A stretch of 64,000 bases of DNA from an uncultured Acidobacteriota bacterium (GTDB taxonomy: Bacteria; Acidobacteriota; Vicinamibacteria; Vicinamibacterales; SCN-69-37): positions 157,961 to 221,960 of the forward strand of contig CAVVWN010000007.1 in NCBI GenBank assembly GCA_963752045.1, read 5' to 3'. Below, one piece after another: positions 9,647 to 58,362 of the stretch. A model generated the notes under the pieces. It was not told the DNA's origin and ran no database searches. It saw nothing but the letters and a program-made list of their open reading frames with translations. A program made the position numbers and the translations under genes. Numbering within the stretch: position 1 is the first letter of the stretch; each line of letters begins with the position of its first letter.

Positions 9647-11737
9647 ATGGCGTCATTGCAATCACAGGGGCGGCTTCAGCGGACGGCGCAGGGCGGTTTC
9701 CTGCTGGCCTGCCTGGCGGGAGCCCTCGCCGGAACCGTCGCGGTCGCGGCACGTGCCCAGGACGCTGTTCCGGCATGGCCCCGATCGATCACGTCCGGAG
9801 CGTGGGTGGTGACGATCTACCAACCGCAGGCCGACACCTACGAGGGCGACAGGCTCGAGGGCCGGGCGGCCGTCTCGGTCCGCCGGACAGATGGGAGCGG
9901 CGAGCCGATTTTTGGCGCCGTGTGGTTCGCCGCACGCCTCGACATCAACCGCCAGGAACGCATGGCGTACGTCCGGGAGCTCACCGTTCCCGAAGTGCGC
10001 TTCGCCGACTCCACCGAGGAGCAACGCCGGCGGCTCACGGACCTGCTCGAGTCGGAGATGCCGAAGTGGAATCTCTCAATCGATCTCGACCGCCTCGTAG
10101 CGGACCTCGACGCCGGCGAGGCCGATGCTCTGACGGCCGGCCTCCGGCACGACCCGCCGCGGTTCGTCCACTCGATCGAGCCGGCCGTGCTGGTGCTGTT
10201 CGACGGCAAACCCACGGTGGCCGACCTCGAGGGCAGCGTCGGTCTTGAACGTGTCGTCAACACTCCGTATCCGGTGGTCCGGCAGAAGAGCGGCGCCACG
10301 TTCTATCTGTTCGGCGGCAATACGCTCTGGTACTCCGCAGCCGATCCGCTCGGGCCGTGGTCGGTGACGAAGTCGGTGCCTGCACCCGTTCAGCGGATCG
10401 CCGATGGCATCGAGACGGCGAAGAAGGAGACTGCGCCGTCCGACGCTCGCTCGCCACGCATCATCACCGCCACCGAACCGACCGAGCTCATCGTCACAGA
10501 CGGCGAACCGAGCTGGACGGCCATCGAAGGCGTGGACCTGCTCTACTGCGACAACACGTCCTCGGACGTGTTCCTCGAGACCTCGACGCAGCGGTATTTC
10601 GTGCTCGCCGCCGGCCGCTGGTTCGCCGGACAGGCCGTAGGCGACCAGGTGACGTGGGCTCACGTGCCGAATGACGAGCTGCCGGAGGCCTTCTCGGACA
10701 TTCCGGCCGACTCCCCGAAGGGAGCCGTGCTCGTGCACGTTGCCGGAACCGTCCAGGCGCGGCAGGAGCTCGTCGACAGCCGGATTCCGGACATCAGGTC
10801 GGTGCGACTCGGCGCCGCCTCGCTCGCCATCCGCTACGACGGTGAACCGGAGTTCCAGCCCGTGACCGGAGCGGAAGGCGTGAGTTACGCCGTCAATACG
10901 GCCGCGACCGTCTTCAGAACCGGCAACGCGTACTACGCCTGCGAGAACGCGGTGTGGTACCGCGCCGGCGTGCCCACCGGACCGTGGCAGGTTGCGACAG
11001 AGGTGCCGTCGGCCATCTACCTCGTCCCGCCGTCGAACCCTCACTACAACGCCACGTACGTGCGCGTGTACGACGCCACGCCGGAAGTGGCCTACGTGGG
11101 CTACACGCCAGGATACGTGGGGAGCTACGTCTCACACGGCAGTGTGGTCTGGGGCACGGGATGGAGCTACGACCCATGGTACGGCACGAGCTACTACCCG
11201 TTTCCGTGGACCTGGGGCCTGCACATGGGCTACCACCCGTGGTCGGGATGGGGCGTGGGCGTCGGTTGGGCGAGCGGACCGTTTCAGATCACGATCGGCT
11301 GGGTGGCCGGCCCGTACCAGCCGTATTCGTACGGCGGATGGTACGGACCTGGCGGCTTCATGGCGCCGTATCCGCGCGGGCCGGTGTATGTGAATCCCTC
11401 GCCCGGGATGACCGGCATGCAGTTTTCGCGGCCGGGCGTCTACGATAAGCCGACGATGTCAAACCGCGTGGCGCCGCCGCGGCCGATGGGCAGCTACGGG
11501 ATGCGGACCGATTCGGCCGGCACGGCCAACGACGTCTTCACCGACAAGGGTGGAAACATCTATCGCCAGAACGCGAGTGGCGGCTGGGACCAGCGGCAGG
11601 GTGGCACCTGGAACGCGGCCTCTGGCCTCGATCGCGGCTCCGGCACGTCGGCCACCCGCCCCGAGCTCGAAAGCGACGCCAGGGCCCGGTCACAGGGCGC
11701 CACCAGGTCCAGCCAGTTCCGCGGGAGTGGACGCTGA
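9647..11737 (+). CDS. large secreted protein of unknown function, paralog B
   Basis: ORF 8933..11737 trimmed to ATG 9647 (MASLQSQGRLQRTAQGGFLLACLAGALAGTVAVAARAQ), 1 nt after the stop of paralog A. Similarity to paralog A begins right after the signal peptide. Confidence 0.8.
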   Translation: MASLQSQGRLQRTAQGGFLLACLAGALAGTVAVAARAQDAVPAWPRSITSGAWVVTIYQPQADTYEGDRLEGRAAVSVRRTDGSGEPIFGAVWFAARLDINRQERMAYVRELTVPEVRFADSTEEQRRRLTDLLESEMPKWNLSIDLDRLVADLDAGEADALTAGLRHDPPRFVHSIEPAVLVLFDGKPTVADLEGSVGLERVVNTPYPVVRQKSGATFYLFGGNTLWYSAADPLGPWSVTKSVPAPVQRIADGIETAKKETAPSDARSPRIITATEPTELIVTDGEPSWTAIEGVDLLYCDNTSSDVFLETSTQRYFVLAAGRWFAGQAVGDQVTWAHVPNDELPEAFSDIPADSPKGAVLVHVAGTVQARQELVDSRIPDIRSVRLGAASLAIRYDGEPEFQPVTGAEGVSYAVNTAATVFRTGNAYYACENAVWYRAGVPTGPWQVATEVPSAIYLVPPSNPHYNATYVRVYDATPEVAYVGYTPGYVGSYVSHGSVVWGTGWSYDPWYGTSYYPFPWTWGLHMGYHPWSGWGVGVGWASGPFQITIGWVAGPYQPYSYGGWYGPGGFMAPYPRGPVYVNPSPGMTGMQFSRPGVYDKPTMSNRVAPPRPMGSYGMRTDSAGTANDVFTDKGGNIYRQNASGGWDQRQGGTWNAASGLDRGSGTSATRPELESDARARSQGATRSSQFRGSGR

Positions 11738-13878: not shown

Positions 13879-13987
13879 GGTAACGACAGGTACGACAGGT
13901 ACGACGGGTACGACAGGTACGACAGGTACGACAGGTACGACAGGTACGACAGGTACGACGGGTACGACGGGTACGACGGGTGCCTCA
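13879..13987. repeat. tandem array of 9-bp unit GGTACGAC(A/G): 10 perfect units (13889-13978) plus a degenerate unit on each side
   Basis: Counted by hand. It reads (C/T)GTCGTACC on the recQ sense strand and ends 14 nt before the recQ ATG. Confidence 0.95.
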
Positions 13988-46147: not shown

Positions 46148-47185
46148 ATGGTCTCGCCCGGGCTCTTTCGCATCGTCCGCTGCCCAGACTGTGCGGGTCC
46201 CATTCATCCGGATGCGACGGCCGCCCGCTGCGAGCGCTGCGGCCGCACGTTCGACGCGGCGGCCGGGTATCTGGATCTTCGTCCCTCAACGGCCTTCGCG
46301 GAAAACACGAAGTATCTCGACGCCGAGTTGCACGCCGACGCCCGCCACGAGACGATCGCGCCGCCGCTGCTCGGGTCGAAGATCCGGCAGGACATGCTGC
46401 GGGCGTTTCTCGCGCCGGGTGCGGGCGACCGCGCAATCGACCTCGGCTGCGGGAGCGGACGCGCGCTTGCGTGGAACACGGGATCGGGAGCCGTGCTCAC
46501 GGGCATCGACATCAGCCCGTACTTCGCTCGTGAAGCGCTTGCCGGTCACGACCTGCTGCTCGGCGACCTTCGGCGGCTTCCCCTGCGCGACGCCGCCTTC
46601 ACAAAGGCCTGGACGCTCGACGTCGTCGAGCACGTCTCGCCCGATGCGCTCGAGCAGGTGCTCGCCGAAGCGAACCGCGTGCTCGCTCCAGGCGGCGCCC
46701 TGTTCGTCTACTCGCACGTGCGCAAGAACGGCTGGATCGCCGGCGGGGTCCGTGCGGTCAACAGGCTCGCCGCGCTGCTCGATCGGGCCGGCGCGCTCGA
46801 CCTCACGCAGGAACGGCTTCGCAAGTCCGACCATCTCAATCCGCTCGCCGACCACGAGGAACTGGAAGCGTTCGCCGCCCGCGCCGGATTCAGCATCGAG
46901 CGCATCACCTTCTATACGCCGATCGTCGGCGCACTCGTCGAGAACGTCCTTGTTCGCATGGGGGAACGGATGCTCGCAAGGCGGGCGGTCAGCGCCGGCG
47001 CGGCCGCGAACGCCCACGATCCGGCCGCCCTCAAGGCTGCCCGATCGGCCGCCAAGGCCCGGGTGCGCGCGAAAGGCGCAACCTACCGGATACTCGTGCT
47101 GCTCTCGGCCGTCATGAAGCTGGACATCTGGCTCTTCGGTCGCATCAGATCGGGGCCGTTCTTTGCGCTGCTCAGGAAGACATGA
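46148..47185 (+). CDS. class I SAM-dependent methyltransferase with N-terminal zinc-ribbon and C-terminal hydrophobic helix
   Basis: It has CPDCAG...CERCG, SAM motif I IDLGCGSGR, post-I LLLGDLRRLP and a C-terminal YRILVLLSAVMKLDIWLFG. Confidence 0.8.
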   Translation: MVSPGLFRIVRCPDCAGPIHPDATAARCERCGRTFDAAAGYLDLRPSTAFAENTKYLDAELHADARHETIAPPLLGSKIRQDMLRAFLAPGAGDRAIDLGCGSGRALAWNTGSGAVLTGIDISPYFAREALAGHDLLLGDLRRLPLRDAAFTKAWTLDVVEHVSPDALEQVLAEANRVLAPGGALFVYSHVRKNGWIAGGVRAVNRLAALLDRAGALDLTQERLRKSDHLNPLADHEELEAFAARAGFSIERITFYTPIVGALVENVLVRMGERMLARRAVSAGAAANAHDPAALKAARSAAKARVRAKGATYRILVLLSAVMKLDIWLFGRIRSGPFFALLRKT

Positions 47186-47188
47186 GCG

Positions 47189-47233
47189 GGTACGACAGGT
47201 ACGACGGGTACGACGGGTACGACGGGTACGTGG
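47189..47233. repeat. tandem array GGTACGAC(A/G), 4 units plus 1 degenerate (left arm of a foldback)
   Basis: It starts 3 nt after the methyltransferase TGA (47183-47185). The unit is the same as at 13889-13978. Confidence 0.95.
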
Positions 47234-47383
47234 AACGAGCTGGCGCTGGCCAGCCTTCTTCATGTGCTGGAGACGGTCGAATCAGAGAAGAGCTCGTGAG
47301 CCCTGTGGGAGTAGTGGCGAGCCGGCTTCGGTCACGTGCGGGAGTCCGCATTTGAGTAGAAGATGACAAGCTTCAGGTTCCTC

Positions 47384-47452
47384 GTACCCGTCGTACCCGT
47401 CGTACCTGTCGTACCTGTCGTACCCGTCGTACCCGTCGTACCTGTCGTACCC
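47384..47452. repeat. tandem array GTACC(C/T)GTC, 7 units plus a partial unit (right arm, reverse complement of the left arm)
   Basis: Counted by hand. It ends 11 nt before ATG 47464 of the first GT4 gene. Confidence 0.95.
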
Positions 47453-47463
47453 GAGATCTCTTG

Positions 47464-48609
47464 ATGCGCGTTCTCTACGTCGCCACCGACCAGACCGTTC
47501 CGGGCACGCTCGGCGGGTCGGTGCACGTGCAGGCTGTGGCCAACGGGCTGGCCGCGCGGGGCCACGACGTCCACGTCGTCGCCCGGCAGCGTGGACCGTG
47601 GCCGGAAGGGCCGGCCACCTGGCACGCCCTCGCCCCGCCGTTCGGCATCCGTCACCTCCGCTGGATGCATCAGGGCACTGTCACACGACTCGGACAGCGA
47701 ATCCGACCCGACGTCGTCATCGAGCGCTACCACAACTTCGGCGGCGAGGGCGTCCTGGCCGCCCGGCGCCTCGGCGTGCCCGCCGTGCTCGAGGTCAACG
47801 CGCCGGTCATCGACTATCCGGGATCGACCAAGTCGCGTCTCGACCGCGCATTGCTCGTCGAGCCGATGCGGCGCTGGCGCGATCGCGTCTGCAGGCTGAC
47901 GGACCTGTTCGTCACGCCAACGGCCGACATCCTGCCGTCGTGGGTCGACCGGAGCCGCGTCCTCGAGATCGAATGGGGCGCCGACGTTCACAGTTTCCGG
48001 CCGGACGTGCCCCGGGCGGCCGGTTTTCCCGGCGACCGCAGCCGCATCTGGTGCGTGTTTGCGGGCGCGTTCCGCTCGTGGCACGGCGTCGTCCACCTGG
48101 CGGCGGCGCTCGCGCGACTCCATGCGGCCGGCGACCATCGATTCGGCGCGGTGCTCATCGGTGACGGCCCCGAGCGGCCCGCCGCCGAACGCGCGGCGCG
48201 GGGCGTCCCTGGCATCGTCTTTACCGGCGCCGTGCCCCACGCGGCGATGCCGGGCTGGCTCGCTGCCGCCGACATCGGCGTGGCGCCATTCGACCCCATC
48301 AAGCACGGACCGCTTCGACTCGGCTTCTACTGGTCGCCCTTGAAGATCTTCGAGTACATGTCGGCAGGGCTGCCGGTCGTCGCGCCGGCGTTGCCGAGGC
48401 TGGGACGACTGATTCACACCGGCCGCGAAGGCCTGCTGTACGATCCGTCCGACCCGCGCGCACTCGACCACGCGCTCGGGGAGCTGGGCGATCCGGCCGT
48501 GCGGCGCCGAATGGGACAGGCCGCCCGTGTCCGCGTGGTCGACGAGTTCAGCTGGGAAGCGCATTGCGCGACGCTCGACGAGCGGCTCGCGCGCCTGGTA
48601 TCCGCATGA
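47464..48609 (+). CDS. glycosyltransferase family 4
   Basis: It has MRVLYVATDQTVPGTLGGSVHV and a C-terminal GT-B block WSPLKIFEYMSAGLPVVA. ATG 47464 is preferred over TTG 47461. Confidence 0.85.
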   Translation: MRVLYVATDQTVPGTLGGSVHVQAVANGLAARGHDVHVVARQRGPWPEGPATWHALAPPFGIRHLRWMHQGTVTRLGQRIRPDVVIERYHNFGGEGVLAARRLGVPAVLEVNAPVIDYPGSTKSRLDRALLVEPMRRWRDRVCRLTDLFVTPTADILPSWVDRSRVLEIEWGADVHSFRPDVPRAAGFPGDRSRIWCVFAGAFRSWHGVVHLAAALARLHAAGDHRFGAVLIGDGPERPAAERAARGVPGIVFTGAVPHAAMPGWLAAADIGVAPFDPIKHGPLRLGFYWSPLKIFEYMSAGLPVVAPALPRLGRLIHTGREGLLYDPSDPRALDHALGELGDPAVRRRMGQAARVRVVDEFSWEAHCATLDERLARLVSA

Positions 48610-49874
48610 GCTCACCGCTTCGGATTCTCGTCACGACCGATGCGTTTCCGCCGGTTTGCGGGGGCAGCGGATGGAGCAGCTGGGAGCTGGTCCGCGGCCT
48701 GGCCGCGCGCGGCCACCACGTCGAGGTCGTCAAGGTCGAGGCCGGACCGGCCGGCCACCTCGACACGACCTATGAGGGCGTCCGCGTCACGATCTTCAGG
48801 CAGCAGGCACCCGCCGTGCCGGTCGTCCGCAACGTCGCGAAGAACGAGCGGATGTGGTCGAAAGCGACCGCTTACCTGATCGACAGGCTTCGCACCGCGC
48901 CCATGGACGTCGTCCACGCGCAACACGTGATGAGCACCGTGCCGAGCATCAGGGCGGCTTCGCGAACCGGCACGCCGGTCGTCGCGACGGTTCGCGACTA
49001 CTGGCCGGTCTGCTACTGGTCCGACCTCATCCACGACCCAGCCTCGCCCACGCTGTGCCCCGCCTGTTCGACGGCCATGATGCGCCAGTGCGTGCGACCG
49101 CGCGCGGGCAATGCAGGCGTCGCCGCCTGGTCGCTGATCCCGTACATGCGCGCCAACCTGCGACGCAAGCGAACGACGCTCGCCCGCGCGAGCGCCGTCA
49201 TCGCCGTCAGCCACCGCATCGCCCACGACCTCGAGACCCGGGCGCCCGAGCTGCGCCAGACACCCGTGTTCACGATTCCCAACCCCGTGGACCTCGCGAT
49301 GCTCGATCGAGCCGGGACGGCCGCGGCCCCGCTCGACGGGGCCTACGCGCTCTACGCCGGCAAGCTCGCGCCGAACAAGGGCGCGCAGTTCCTGCTGCCC
49401 GCCTGGGCCGAAGCCGGGCTCGACTGGCCGCTCGTCGTGGCCGGCGACGGCCCGCTCCGCGCGGCGCTCGAAGAAGACGCCGCGCGTCGCCGACTCGACG
49501 TTCGTTTCCTCGGCTGGTGCGACCGGCCGGACGTGTGGAAGTGGATGCGGCACGCCACGATGCTGGCCTTCCCGTCGTACGGCCCCGAGTCTCTCAGCCG
49601 GGTGCTGCTCGAAGCCGCGGCGCTCGGCACGCCAATCGCCGCGATGGAGACCGGCGGAACGGCCGACATCCTCAAACACGGTGTGACGGCACTCCTCTCG
49701 GCCTCGAGAGAAGCGTTTGCCGAGGACCTTGCGACGCTCGGCCGTGATGAGCGGCTGCGCGCGAAGCTCGGCCACGCGGCTCGAGAGGACGTGCGGGCGC
49801 GGTTCTCGGCGGCCTCGGTCGTGGACCGGATCGAACAGGTTTACCGGGGACTGCTCCAACCCAGGGCAGCCTGA
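48606..49874 (+). CDS. glycosyltransferase family 4
   Basis: ATGA start/stop overlap with the previous gene. It has LRILVTTDAFPPVCGGSGWS and GPESLSRVLLEAAALGTPIAA. Confidence 0.85.
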   Translation: MSSPLRILVTTDAFPPVCGGSGWSSWELVRGLAARGHHVEVVKVEAGPAGHLDTTYEGVRVTIFRQQAPAVPVVRNVAKNERMWSKATAYLIDRLRTAPMDVVHAQHVMSTVPSIRAASRTGTPVVATVRDYWPVCYWSDLIHDPASPTLCPACSTAMMRQCVRPRAGNAGVAAWSLIPYMRANLRRKRTTLARASAVIAVSHRIAHDLETRAPELRQTPVFTIPNPVDLAMLDRAGTAAAPLDGAYALYAGKLAPNKGAQFLLPAWAEAGLDWPLVVAGDGPLRAALEEDAARRRLDVRFLGWCDRPDVWKWMRHATMLAFPSYGPESLSRVLLEAAALGTPIAAMETGGTADILKHGVTALLSASREAFAEDLATLGRDERLRAKLGHAAREDVRARFSAASVVDRIEQVYRGLLQPRAA

Positions 49875-55294: not shown

Positions 55295-55320
55295 CACCAC
55301 CACCCCCGTCGCCGCACCCC

Positions 55321-55415
55321 CGAACCCCGAACCCTCGGACCGTCGGACCGTCGGACCCCCGGACCTTCGGACCCCCGGACCGTCGGACCGTCGGACCCTC
55401 GGACCCTCGGACCTC
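55321..55415. repeat. tandem array of 8-bp unit CGGACCNN: 10 units (55336-55415) preceded by 2 degenerate CGAACCC units
   Basis: Counted by hand. It directly abuts the TAG (55416-55418) of the bamA-type gene and ends 26 nt before ATG 55294 of the next gene. The 8-bp period is incompatible with coding. Confidence 0.95.
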
Positions 55416-58362
55416 CTAGAACGCCTCCCCGATGCTGAAGTGCATCTCCCACAGGCGTTCCGGGCGGCCATTGAAGACCAGGCGGCTCATCTTGAACCCC
55501 ACGTCGAAGCGGAGTGGCCCGAGCGGGGAATCCCACCTGACGCCGAGCCCGGACGTGCCTCGGAGCCGGCCGAGGTCGAGGTCGCCGACCCGTCGGAACA
55601 CGTTGCCGCCGTCGACGAACCCGACCCCGACCAGACGCCGGCCGAACAAGTTACCGATACCGGCGCGCAGTTCCGCATTTACGACGATGACGGCGTTTCC
55701 GCCATTCGACAGACCGTCGTCATTGAGGATCTCCGACACGCCGAGCCGGTCGAGCTGGAAGCCGCGCACGGTGGTGCCGCCGCCGGCAAAGAACCGCTGG
55801 CTGGCTGGAAGGTCGTCGAGCGCGACGTCGGGAATGGGCTCGAAGGCAACCGGCTCCTCGAGCGGCAACCGGCGCTCGGCGGCTCTGGCAAGACCAAGCT
55901 GCGCGCGCGTGGCGAGAATGAACCGGCGATCCTCGGACAGCGGCGTGAACCGGACGGCCTGAAAGAATGTCTTGACGTAGTTGACTTCCGAGCCAATCGC
56001 CGTGAGCGCGGTTTCGATGTCCGCGGTGGCGAACGTCCCGCGCGTCGGCGCCACCAGGCTGTCACGCCTGTCCCACACGACGCCGGTAGAAAGCGTCGAC
56101 AGGCGCACCTGGGGAAAGAGCCGGTCGATGGCCGGCTGGTCCTCCGGAGGGATGAGCTCGTCGAAGAGCTTGGTGAAGTCCAGCCCGTAGCGTCCGGTCA
56201 CGCTGACGGTCGGCGAGACCCGGTGGAGGATCTCGGCGTTGACCGCCCGGCGCAGGAAGTTGAAATTCGTCCGGGTTGCCTGCTCCGACGTGAGGCCGAA
56301 CAGGATCTCCGAGTCGCTGCCAAAAGCGCGCCGTTCGCGATAGGCCACCGTGGTCCGGGTACTCGACGAACCCGAACGTGCCTCCCGAGTCGCCGATTTC
56401 CTTCAGCGTGGCGCGCTTGAGACTGAGCCGCCCGAAGAAGCTCAGGGTGCGGTCGCGCCCGCCGATGTGCCGCCTGGCCAGCTCGACGAAACCCCGCGGG
56501 GCGATCTCGAGCACCTCCTCGATGCGCTGACCGGCGAACGATTGTGGCCGACGGCCGGCCTCGATGCCGCCGCCGTAGCCAACGGTGGTTGCCGGAGCCT
56601 CGTCGACGGAGAGGATCACGTGCGCGCGCATGTCGCCAGGCGGTCTTGGCTGCTCGCTGAACGACGCGCGGGATACGCCGAGCTCCGCCAGCCGTCGCCG
56701 GCTCTCGTTGATGGCCGCCGGGCCGAACGGCTGCCCGGGCTTCAGCATGATGCGTTCGAGGATCGTCTCTTCCGACACCCGCTCGTTGCCGACCACCGTA
56801 ATCTGCGCGACGATGGTCTGGGGCCCTTCGGTGATGTGAAACGTCAGGTCGACGGAGGTGCCTTCGTCGGCGAACACCGGCTCGCGCGCTTCGACCCGAG
56901 CCGCGCGGAAGCCGCGGTCCTGATAGAGCGTCTCCAGATCGAGTCGGTCGAAGTAGACGGCCGCGACCGAGTACGGTTCCCCGGGCCGCGATCGCATCAC
57001 GGCCCGGAGATCGGCTTCGGGAACGACCGCGCTGGCGTCGGCCGGCTCGATCGCCACGGACCGCAGCAGGCCGCGAGGCCCTTCGACGATCTCCGGATTG
57101 AGGGCGAGCCAGGCCTCGGCCGGCGTCGACCTGTCGGCGTCCTCGGTGTACTGGGGTGTCGCCTCGACCGCATAGAAACCCTGCCGCTGGTACTCCAGGG
57201 CGACGCGCTGAATCCCCTGCAGCACGCGGGCATCGTCGACGGGATCGCCCGGCTTGACGCCAATCGCATCGCGAATCACGTCGTCGCCGAGGGCCAGTCC
57301 GGCAGGCAGATCGATACGAGCCAGGCGGTAGCGTCGCCCTCGCGTGACATGAAACGTGATGATGAGCTCGTCTCCCCGCGCCTCCCGCGTGTGGAAGACG
57401 TCGGCCTGCCGGTAGCCATCCTGCTCGAGCGCGCTGCGGATCAACTGGTCGGCGTCCTCGAGGAGATCTTCGTCGGCGAGGCCTTCACGCCGAATCGGGA
57501 CGAGGTCGTCCACGTTGCCACCAGGGCGCGCGTCTCCGGCCCACTCGACGCGAATGCGCGGCCCCGCGCCGATGATGAGCTCGAGATCGACCGCCGTGCG
57601 GTCGGCCGACTCGGTGACCTGGGGGTTCGCGAACGCGGAGTAGTAGCCGAGGCCGCTCAGCTGATCTCGCAGGCCGGCGAGCGCGCTCGAGAGCGCGCGC
57701 GGCCGATACGGGCTGCCTTCGACGGCGCCCGTCCGGTCGCGGATCTGCCGCTCGGAGAGCGGCGACTGGTTGTCGATGGTCACGCTCGCGATGCGGGCCT
57801 GCACACCGGCGTCCACGTCGATCGCGAGCGTCGCCCGTGAAGCACCGGCCGTCCGCACCGTCGCCGCCCGGGCCCGGGCACCGAGAAAGCCCTCGTCGTT
57901 GAGGGCCCGTTCGACGGCCTGCTCCACGTTGCGCAGGTTGGCGTTGGCTGGTGGCAGCCCGCCATACAGGTCGCGAACGTATCGCTGCAGGTCCGCCTCG
58001 GGCACCCCGAGCGTTCCCGCGAATGTGACCCGCTCGATCGGCAGCCTCGGCTCGAGGGCGATGGTGACGATGAGGCCGGCTGGCCCGTCGGCCACGAGCA
58101 GGCGGACGTCGTCGAAACGCGCGAGCCGCCCGAAGTGGTCCATTGTGGTACGAACGTCGACGATCGACAGCGGCCTGCCGACGGTGATCTCGACGAGGTC
58201 GCGCAACGAGCTGTCCGACTGCGGCACTCCCGCGAGCTCGATGCGGATCTCGGCCACGGTCCGGCCCGCAAACGACGCGACCGGGTCCTGCGCGAACGCC
58301 CCGGCCGGCAGAGACGCCGCGAGCAGGCCGACGAGGAGAACGGCAAGCGGGCGCGGACGCAT
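55416..58362 (-). pseudogene. bamA: BamA/Omp85-family outer membrane protein assembly factor, reading frame interrupted by a 1-nt frameshift near 56357-56359
   Basis: ORF 56062..58362 encodes a signal peptide, POTRA-like repeats and the first barrel strands up to ...GGTFGFVEY. ORF 55416..56348 continues in another frame with ...RTTVAYRERRAFGSDSEILFGL... to the Omp85 terminus HFSIGEAF. Removing one C of the CCC run (GGG 56357-56359 on plus) joins them. This could be a true pseudogene or a homopolymer sequencing error. Confidence 0.75.

Follow-up and report, generated by a model that had tools for sequence, protein, structure and literature searches.

The gap between a methyltransferase gene and a glycosyltransferase gene of an uncultured Acidobacteriota bacterium (Vicinamibacterales, SCN-69-37; assembly GCA_963752045.1, contig CAVVWN010000007.1) is filled by two tandem arrays of the 9-mer GGTACGACR in inverted orientation, and this raises the question of what kind of sequence the arrays and their core represent. 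The locus occupies positions 47186-47463 of the stretch analysed, which is 64,000 nucleotides (nt) long and is called the window throughout; coordinates count from its first letter. The preliminary description of this DNA had offered a small-RNA locus, an insulator or terminator between two operons, or a foldback-type non-autonomous mobile element. The last proposal agrees with a dispersed family that has conserved termini, with orthologous sites in both empty and filled states and with long relatives that bear an open reading frame (ORF). The locus is probably a single copy of a foldback (hairpin) repeat element dispersed among Vicinamibacterales-type Acidobacteriota, and as such a short gene-less relative of full-length members that carry a PF05635 gene. 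The parts of the site are as follows.

46148-47185, plus strand: methyltransferase gene (ORF list; Pfam Methyltransf_11/25)
47183-47185, plus strand: TGA stop codon of the methyltransferase gene (ORF list; the genes of orthologues stop at the equivalent point)
47187-47233, plus strand: left arm, four perfect GGTACGACR units and one degenerate unit (GGTACGTGG) reaching the core junction
47225-47261, plus strand: left subterminal module, the A-half, GGTACGTGGAACGAGCTGGCGCTGGCCAGCCTTCTTC (alignments; profile hidden Markov model, HMM)
47262-47358, strand not applicable: variable core interior (loop), outside the family profile match, holding the GGCUUCGGUC mini-hairpin
47359-47381, plus strand: right subterminal module, the B-half, GAAGATGACAAGCTTCAGGTTCC (alignments to relatives; profile HMM)
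47380-47451, minus strand: right arm, eight GGTACGACR units, reading YGTCGTACC on the plus strand
47452-47463, plus strand: spacer CGAGATCTCTTG, 12 nt from the last arm unit to ATG 47464, keeping a TGATG overlap
47464-48609, plus strand: first GT4 glycosyltransferase gene (Pfam; 100% identical to database protein P0001)

The arms and the core exactly occupy the gap from methyltransferase stop to glycosyltransferase start, and the three bases GCG lead from the TGA to the left arm, whose first full unit is at 47189. The element is 263 bp long from outer arm end to outer arm end, and the core between the arms is 146 bp. The inverted arms described earlier were recovered from the sequence itself, by Tandem Repeats Finder (TRF) and by a dimer search. 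TRF gave 9-bp arrays at 47187-47230 (4.9 copies, 94% matches) and, as the reverse complement, at 47382-47453 (8.0 copies, 93%), and it reported the 9-mer in tandem a third time, at 13883-13981. A degenerate dimer pattern matched the window 21 times where 0.02 matches were expected, a number reached in none of 100 shuffles, and the matches were confined to 13880-13978 and 47189-47233 on the plus strand and 47380-47451 on the minus strand. Pairing between the arms, earlier put at more than 35 bp, was computed as about 45 bp plus a GGAAC/GUUCC pair; the folding z-scores of -9.5 and -10.1 are trivial given the inverted arms. The core-containing region had a GC content of 0.59-0.64 against 0.69 (68.7%) for the whole window, in keeping with the less GC-rich core reported before, and the GGCUUCGGUC hairpin noted in it is present at 47323-47332. 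The ORF list of the window contains no ORF spanning the element.

The history of the junction was read from orthologous clusters located through the glycosyltransferase protein, whose homologues at 70-73% identity are labelled Vicinamibacterales. The comparison of relatives proposed in the preliminary description returned both the empty and the filled state (handles beginning with L denote fetched loci).

L105, glycosyltransferase identity 88%: junction ..TCT TGA c ATG.., a 1-nt gap (empty)
Orthologue without DNA, glycosyltransferase identity 81%: junction gap of 22 nt
L106, glycosyltransferase identity 78%: junction holding a 151-nt family member with arms of four and four units and a short core with CTGGCGATGGCC
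L107, glycosyltransferase identity 73%: junction gap of 4 nt (empty)

In the relatives, translational coupling joins the methyltransferase and glycosyltransferase genes within one operon, and the orthologous junctions show the window element to be an insertion into this formerly tight junction inside the operon. The element of L106 likewise sits exactly between TGA and ATG. Elsewhere in its cluster, at 9759-9968, L107 holds a further family member in a different junction, and the right core end of this member is 95% identical to that of the window copy over 22 nt. The conserved core half is on one side in the window copy and on the other in the L106 copy, and the right flank of the window copy (GAGATCTCTTGATG) is still like the ancestral end of the methyltransferase gene; both points favour independent insertions. 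By eye, the spacer CGAGATCTCTTG also appears to resemble the 3' end of the ancestral methyltransferase gene in relatives (..GGATCTC..TGA..ATG / ..AAATCTTGAcATG). No target-site duplication was found at the outer ends of 12 inspected pairs, nor in the comparison of filled with empty sites, although the ends are fuzzy and a very short one is possible. The arms begin with partial units, which blurs the element ends. No universal target motif was found at the outer ends, and TAG/TGA or TATA-like sequences often adjoin the arms.

The element proved to be one of many. A scan of 185,579 species genomes with three consecutive units returned at least 100 loci. Among the matches listed, about 45 loci came from metagenome-assembled genomes (MAGs) of Vicinamibacterales/Acidobacteriota, with up to at least 20 in one MAG, and these included nine further convergent pairs of the form (GGTACGACR)n-core-(YGTCGTACC)n and no divergent pair. 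A conserved module, GGTMCGNGGAAC-GnGCTGnCGCTGGCCAnCTT, adjoins the arms on their inner side. A metagenome scan in which the arm/core junction served as query returned at least 120 soil-metagenome loci; among the matches listed there were 61 convergent pairs against one divergent pair, and the core was mostly 59-106 nt. The family architecture of convergent 9-mer arms, conserved subterminal GGAAC.../...GTTCC modules and variable loop was present in at least 70 copies from soil metagenomes and Vicinamibacterales-type MAGs. The composite architecture occurred in about 80 copies from independent assemblies and many samples, contigs of 0.5-1.7 Mb included. In consensus the family forms a long imperfect hairpin, the AT-rich loop of which is short in most members. 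Some 35 Streptomyces loci and sporadic others returned by the genome scan were judged unrelated, the 27-mer lying mostly inside long ORFs and being a coding repeat by appearance; several of the Streptomyces loci shared one common ORF profile with the repeat in a Val-Val-Pro frame.

The relation of the window copy to this family was measured with a profile HMM built from 35 metagenome copies, the window copy being left out. The profile had two matches in the window, at 47216-47263 (E = 5.9e-10) and 47351-47397 (E = 2.4e-7), and no others, so that both core ends are family sequence; the core interior of about 90 nt is specific to the window copy. The A-half is the best-conserved portion of the family. 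The B-half was 95% identical over 22 nt to the element of L107, and its identity to three others was 92% over 37 nt (the ORF-bearing L160), 100% over 26 nt (L150) and 85% over 41 nt (L238). A family member is a pair of inverted GGTACGACR arrays of variable number with GGTMCGNGGAAC-GnGCTGnCGCTGGCCAnCTT... and ...AAGATGRC..CAGGTTCC modules and a variable loop. The ninth base of the unit (R/Y) was mirrored between the two arms in a ratio of 118:80 (permutation p of about 0.006), shifted registers giving less than 50%, which shows that the arms are mirror-symmetric beyond chance. The number of units per array varied from 2 to 16 between loci and was identical within two sets of near-identical contigs from different samples (L228 and L229; L231 to L234). 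RNAalifold gave no consensus structure for 35 aligned short elements, the alignment being spoiled by the variable loops.

The recurrence of the architecture also bears on whether the locus could be a small-RNA gene, the product of chance local slippage or an assembly artefact. Such an origin would be in line with the strong folding and with the fact that short tandem arrays can come from slippage, and it deserves almost no credence against the same architecture in about 80 copies over independent assemblies and a dimer count of 21 against 0.02 expected. The earlier argument against random slippage is strengthened by the recurrence in at least 70 copies. The suggestion of a small-RNA locus fared less well: a search of the whole window at the Rfam gathering thresholds gave no matches, rRNA included, scans of both array loci for promoter and terminator consensus sequences found neither a promoter nor a terminator for the element, and the core interior is not conserved.

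The long relatives provide a link to a known gene family. The three long-core elements L031, L150 and L160 (cores of 555-675 bp) each hold one ORF in the loop that matches PF05635 with E = 1e-13 to 1e-20. PF05635 is the S23p, or "23S rRNA intervening-sequence protein", family. The three proteins are 43-59% identical to one another, and their ORFs were the sole tblastn matches in the roughly 1.4 Mb of loci fetched until then. Five further homologues, picked by protein similarity alone (51-74% identity), were all flanked by convergent GGTACGAC arrays, so that the PF05635 genes lay inside array-flanked long elements in all eight cases examined. The subterminal sequence of L238, AAGATGACAAGTGTCAGGTTCC, is the module found at 47359-47381 of the window. 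The proteins match by sequence the solved pentameric four-helix bundle XCC0516 (2GSC), and also 2RLD. The 9-mer arms are conserved across elements whose proteins are only about 43% identical and whose loops are unrelated, which argues that the 9-mer is functionally constrained. A search of the core of the window copy for an ORF remnant of the PF05635 gene, by blastn and tblastn against the long elements, gave nothing significant. Short members keep the arms and subterminal modules without the gene and, from these shared parts, appear to be miniature non-autonomous derivatives.

Among known systems, the S23p-type intervening sequence (IVS) of 23S rRNA in Coxiella burnetii, Leptospira, Brucella and Xanthomonas comes nearest. 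The Coxiella IVS consists of an inverted-repeat stem and an S23p ORF and is excised by RNase III at two to three tandem heptamers GACAGAT, which vary between strains (PMC4990558). IVSs have been suspected of being selfish or mobile, and the S23p ORF was proposed long ago as a mobility factor (PMC4990558). They share with the present family a long inverted-repeat stem around a loop with an ORF for a PF05635 four-helix bundle, the decay or absence of that ORF in some versions, and short tandem repeats in the stem. The rotated unit GACAGGTAC matches the Coxiella heptamer at six of seven bases; the chance of this is about 0.02 by a rough estimate, and the likeness is a hint of a conserved S23p binding specificity or a coincidence. 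There are also differences. The window element stands between protein-coding genes and not in helix 9, 25 or 45 of 23S rRNA, and this family, whose members are found in operons and between or within protein-coding genes, has many copies per genome, long 9-mer arms and miniatures of 60-150 bp; processing by RNase III would here be an analogy. By the criterion that an IVS has an S23p ORF in its loop, the window copy is an ORF-less derivative only, and it is best read, on its likeness to the longer copies, as the ORF-less derivative of an IVS-like foldback element.

The positions of the copies were obtained from the flanks of 72 full elements, with genes called by a codon-usage model trained on the fetched loci. 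Of the 45 elements with both neighbours called, about 17 had convergent neighbours, about 21 co-directional and about 7 divergent ones, and the outer arm ends were typically 2-10 nt from a stop codon. Such a distribution, after stops and between convergent genes, is known for repetitive extragenic palindromic (REP) sequences and bacterial interspersed mosaic elements (BIMEs) (PMC3733652). A host-selected regulatory hairpin, acting in termination or attenuation, in protection of mRNA 3' ends or in the uncoupling of two genes, as REP/BIME sequences do in Escherichia coli operons, would have this classic terminator/REP position, and its dispersal would be secondary. The very stable stem and the small GC hairpin followed by CTTCTTC inside the A-half fit this reading as well. 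The stem is, however, followed by CGAGAUCUCUUGAUG and not by a U-tract, and the terminator scan reported a 6-bp internal hairpin only. The closest relative has a 1-nt junction, so the hairpin is not needed for the operon; the 9-mer is conserved far beyond the needs of pairing, and an association with a PF05635 gene in eight of eight cases is not expected of a terminator. There was also no bias of strand or orientation: in co-directional contexts the sense strand gave the better fold 12 times against 9 for the antisense strand, and the conserved A-half faced upstream in 8 and downstream in 7. These ratios also led to the structured-RNA reading being dropped and count against a small-RNA locus as well. 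A regulatory hairpin as the primary nature of the element is therefore judged unlikely, with some chance of being right. The insulator or terminator between two operons that had been suggested earlier is likewise unlikely, given that the genes of the relatives form one operon and no U-tract follows the stem; an effect of the hairpin on the mRNA is possible.

The likeness to REP sequences goes beyond position. REP, BIME and REPIN (paired REP) sequences of proteobacteria are high-copy extragenic palindromic repeats that lie after stops or between convergent genes and rarely between divergent ones, that form inverted doublets folding as a long hairpin, singlets and occasional in-frame intragenic copies, and whose presence varies among relatives (PMC3733652). 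The element could thus be of REP/REPIN type and be moved by a REP-associated tyrosine transposase (RAYT) or a terminal-inverted-repeat-associated tyrosine transposase (TIRYT), an IS200/IS605-like Y1 enzyme encoded elsewhere, with PF05635 a frequent passenger in the loop. The two inverted repeats and spacer of the present family also form a hairpin in extragenic, post-stop positions, singlets and intragenic units occur, target duplications are missing as in IS200/IS605 relatives, CGTC is found on one strand of each unit, and Y1 transposases with long terminal inverted repeats (TIRs) have been described in Acidobacteria (PMC3733652). REPs, in contrast, are single imperfect palindromes of 20-40 bp that bear a GTAG or CGTC tag and go together with RAYT Y1 transposases. 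The arms here are tandem non-palindromic 9-mers joined to a GGAAC module, not stem-loops of 20-40 bp with an end tag, and the CGTC is internal. A four-helix-bundle gene takes the place of the transposase, PF05635 being the sole gene repeatedly found between the arms. No Y1 transposase turned up between or beside the arrays in the fetched loci of 2-15 kb, in which no systematic Y1 search was made. Movement by a Y1 transposase is on this evidence quite unlikely. Miniature inverted-repeat transposable elements (MITEs) and foldback elements such as Correia, the Rickettsia palindromic element (RPE) and Nezha have terminal inverted repeats, small size, a short non-coding interior, intergenic dispersal and longer gene-bearing relatives with the same termini, and in-frame insertions are tolerated (Rickettsia RPE). 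The present elements differ from these in that no target-site duplication was seen, the long relatives encode a four-helix bundle and not a recognisable transposase, and the TIRs are arrays of variable copy number.

Arrays of the same unit also occur singly, and one of these lies in the window.

13880-13981, plus strand: recQ solo array, 11 units, without the GGAAC-type core module, between a hairpin after the OprF-like gene and recQ
L076:1135-1161, L028:4948-4983, L086:5027-5071, L075:6150-6185, L102:6035-6061 and others: intragenic arrays

The recQ gene is on the minus strand, and the array reads YGTCGTACC on its sense strand, with the last degenerate unit 15 nt before ATG 13864. The array is followed on this strand by TATGAT (13876-13871), 6 nt and the ATG (13864-13862), with no sequence of Shine-Dalgarno type. 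Thirteen solo arrays lie inside called genes, in each case on the sense strand and in the frame GGT-ACG-ACR, encoding (Gly-Thr-Thr)n. Five of these were checked with Pfam; four are between domains (the linker between the lipoyl and E3-binding domains of an E2 protein, DsbD, a BamB-like protein and a VWA protein) and one is within a domain (PheT). The intergenic solo arrays point the 5' end of the GGTACGACR strand toward the nearest gene end in a ratio of 17:7 (p = 0.06). The preliminary description had taken the like orientation and distance of the recQ array and the right arm as an argument for shared function. The orientation to the start codon is the same and the distances are 15 and 12 nt. 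The step from there to a shared function draws some slight encouragement from the co-directional solo arrays, of which seven read YGTCGTACC in sense near a downstream start against two of the opposite orientation; the right arm comes to lie near the glycosyltransferase start simply because the element takes up all of the intergenic space.

A TANNNT box placed so that it ends 4-14 nt upstream of the predicted start was found for 14 of 35 genes with an array up to 80 nt upstream and for 45 of 331 others (Fisher p = 3e-4). This suggests that array-adjacent genes, recQ apparently among them, have leaderless-type promoters with the array in the spacer or -35 region. It would follow from the arrays being promoter or translation-initiation modules, with (YGTCGTACC)n as a -35/UP-like or standby site and the core incidental, a reading to which the TATGAT box directly after the recQ array and the upstream heptamer arrays discussed as regulators in Beggiatoaceae and Xanthomonas (PMC4679880, PMC4692102) also lend themselves. 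As an account of the window element it is very unlikely, since there is no -10-like box between the right arm and the glycosyltransferase ATG, arrays also follow stops, sit between convergent genes and lie inside coding regions, and the start codons behind the box counts are heuristic, some boxes overlapping the array sequence itself. Similar solo arrays are known as short sequence repeats (SSRs), among them the cyanobacterial short tandemly repeated repetitive (STRR) sequences, TAACTGA of Beggiatoaceae and GGGNATC of Xanthomonas and Nostoc. Like the present arrays these consist of one unit of 6-9 nt in tandem at many non-coding sites near gene ends, mostly between co-directional genes and with copy numbers that vary from site to site, and the Xanthomonas rule that the repeat is on the sense strand after a stop and antisense before an ORF is shared (PMC4692102, PMC4679880). 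The SSR arrays differ in being described as solo direct repeats with no conserved core, inverted partner or associated gene. The GGTACGACR unit has no G-tracts, so that no G-quadruplex is expected. Decay of elements, footprints or independent seeding could each have given rise to the solo arrays.

Several repeats with other units or other cores were observed in the same material. At 261-430 of the window an inverted pair of (ATCTGGG)x4 with (ATCTGCCG)x3.6, a GC-rich core of about 53 bp and (GATCCCA)x7 takes up the space from a stop at about 432 to an ATG at 240, the two genes being co-directional on the minus strand; it has the architecture of the 47186-47463 element, and its core has no GGAAC module. 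A solo array of (ACCCTCGG)x12 lies at 55316-55413, 2 nt after the stop of an Omp85-family gene (55416) and about 60 nt before the next minus-strand start at about 55258; the proteins of the window include both Omp85 and OprF-like types by Pfam. The Omp85-domain ORF (55416-56348) overlaps by about 290 nt a 766-amino-acid ORF on the same strand (56062-58362), and the two could either be parts of one BamA gene that a frameshift or sequencing error has divided or be calls that happen to overlap. In the MAG SMAG_U1395 two GGTACGACR arrays (L036:45-235 and L044:2305-2479) are each followed by the same imperfect palindrome of about 190 bp (GGTGGACGTCCGGGCGCGGGCGGGTTGTGT...), which is unlike the GGAAC core. 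At L032:3380-3570 a GGTACGACR array begins 2 nt after a stop and is followed by four to five tandem copies of a unit of about 44 bp (GCGTACGTAGCGCGGCTCGGGCTGTGAGCCGCGTCGGGTAATCG). Inverted pairs with other units were found at L031:6-115 (CACGGAGG/CCTCCGTG) and L056:7469-7558 (GGCTTGG/CAAGCCTC), and these pairs suggest that such genomes habitually carry hairpins with tandem-repeat arms, of more than one unit. ARAGORN called a 91-nt tRNA-Arg(TCG) at 49355-49445 on the minus strand, antisense within the second glycosyltransferase gene, which is probably a false positive.

The dispersed foldback element can be given a tentative mechanism. The arms would be the cis-acting recognition sequence for whatever spreads the element. 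The element's own four-helix-bundle protein is a candidate for this; it would act in trans, and host recombination or replication functions would supply the catalysis. With no promoter or terminator consensus at the element, transcription of the glycosyltransferase gene must run through it. Transcribed within the operon mRNA, the perfect stem of about 50 bp would be a substrate for RNase III, by analogy with the S23p-type IVS in 23S rRNA. Sites at which a hairpin open to cleavage is nearly harmless would then tolerate the element, and the glycosyltransferase behind the window copy would still be expressed from the read-through transcript. Both the cleavage by RNase III and the mode of mobility are inferences, not results.

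Several points weigh against this account of the locus as a dispersed mobile element. Neither a transposition event nor a target-site duplication nor a catalytic protein came to light, and the four-helix bundle is to our knowledge not a known recombinase, so that the mechanism of mobility is unproven. The derivation of short copies by internal deletion would follow solely from shared termini, the window copy having no ORF remnant. Simple insertion of whole elements does not account for the solo arrays found upstream of recQ and in coding linkers, and the equal array lengths in near-identical contigs give no hint that rapid change is still under way. The junctions could in principle also come from a single old insertion, with inversion of the core and a precise loss in L105 afterwards. 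The loci were collected through the repeat itself, by two scans whose totals are lower bounds, and their genes called by a codon-usage heuristic, which makes the context statistics approximate.

A broader proposal may be put forward as a possibility, one that is rather to be doubted than believed. PF05635 (S23p/Avd-like) would be the signature gene of widespread hairpin mobile elements armed with tandem repeats. The classical 23S rRNA IVSs would be copies that landed in rRNA, the Vicinamibacterales operon junctions would hold miniature ORF-less copies, and the solo arrays in promoters and (Gly-Thr-Thr)n linkers might belong here too, the protein reading 9-mer (or 7-mer) arrays as iteron-like sites. 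The literature search found no paper with the repeat string and none tying PF05635 to miniature or palindromic elements, so that the PF05635-associated foldback family with tandem 9-mer arms appears to be previously undescribed, an absence from the literature being no proof of this.

The origin and mobility of rRNA IVSs and the function of the S23p ORF have been questions since the early 1990s (PMC4990558). A family with ORF-bearing members, many miniatures, conserved arms and datable empty and filled sites is a natural test system for the role of the PF05635 protein in binding the arms and in driving or maintaining the element. We know of no role assigned to PF05635 proteins outside diversity-generating retroelements. 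For the Acidobacteria, which are abundant in soils, the family accounts in annotation for odd operon gaps of 100-300 bp, for intergenic and intragenic 9-mer arrays and for likely assembly breakpoints. In the glycosylation cluster of the window, a stem of about 50 bp between two formerly coupled genes probably alters their relative expression.

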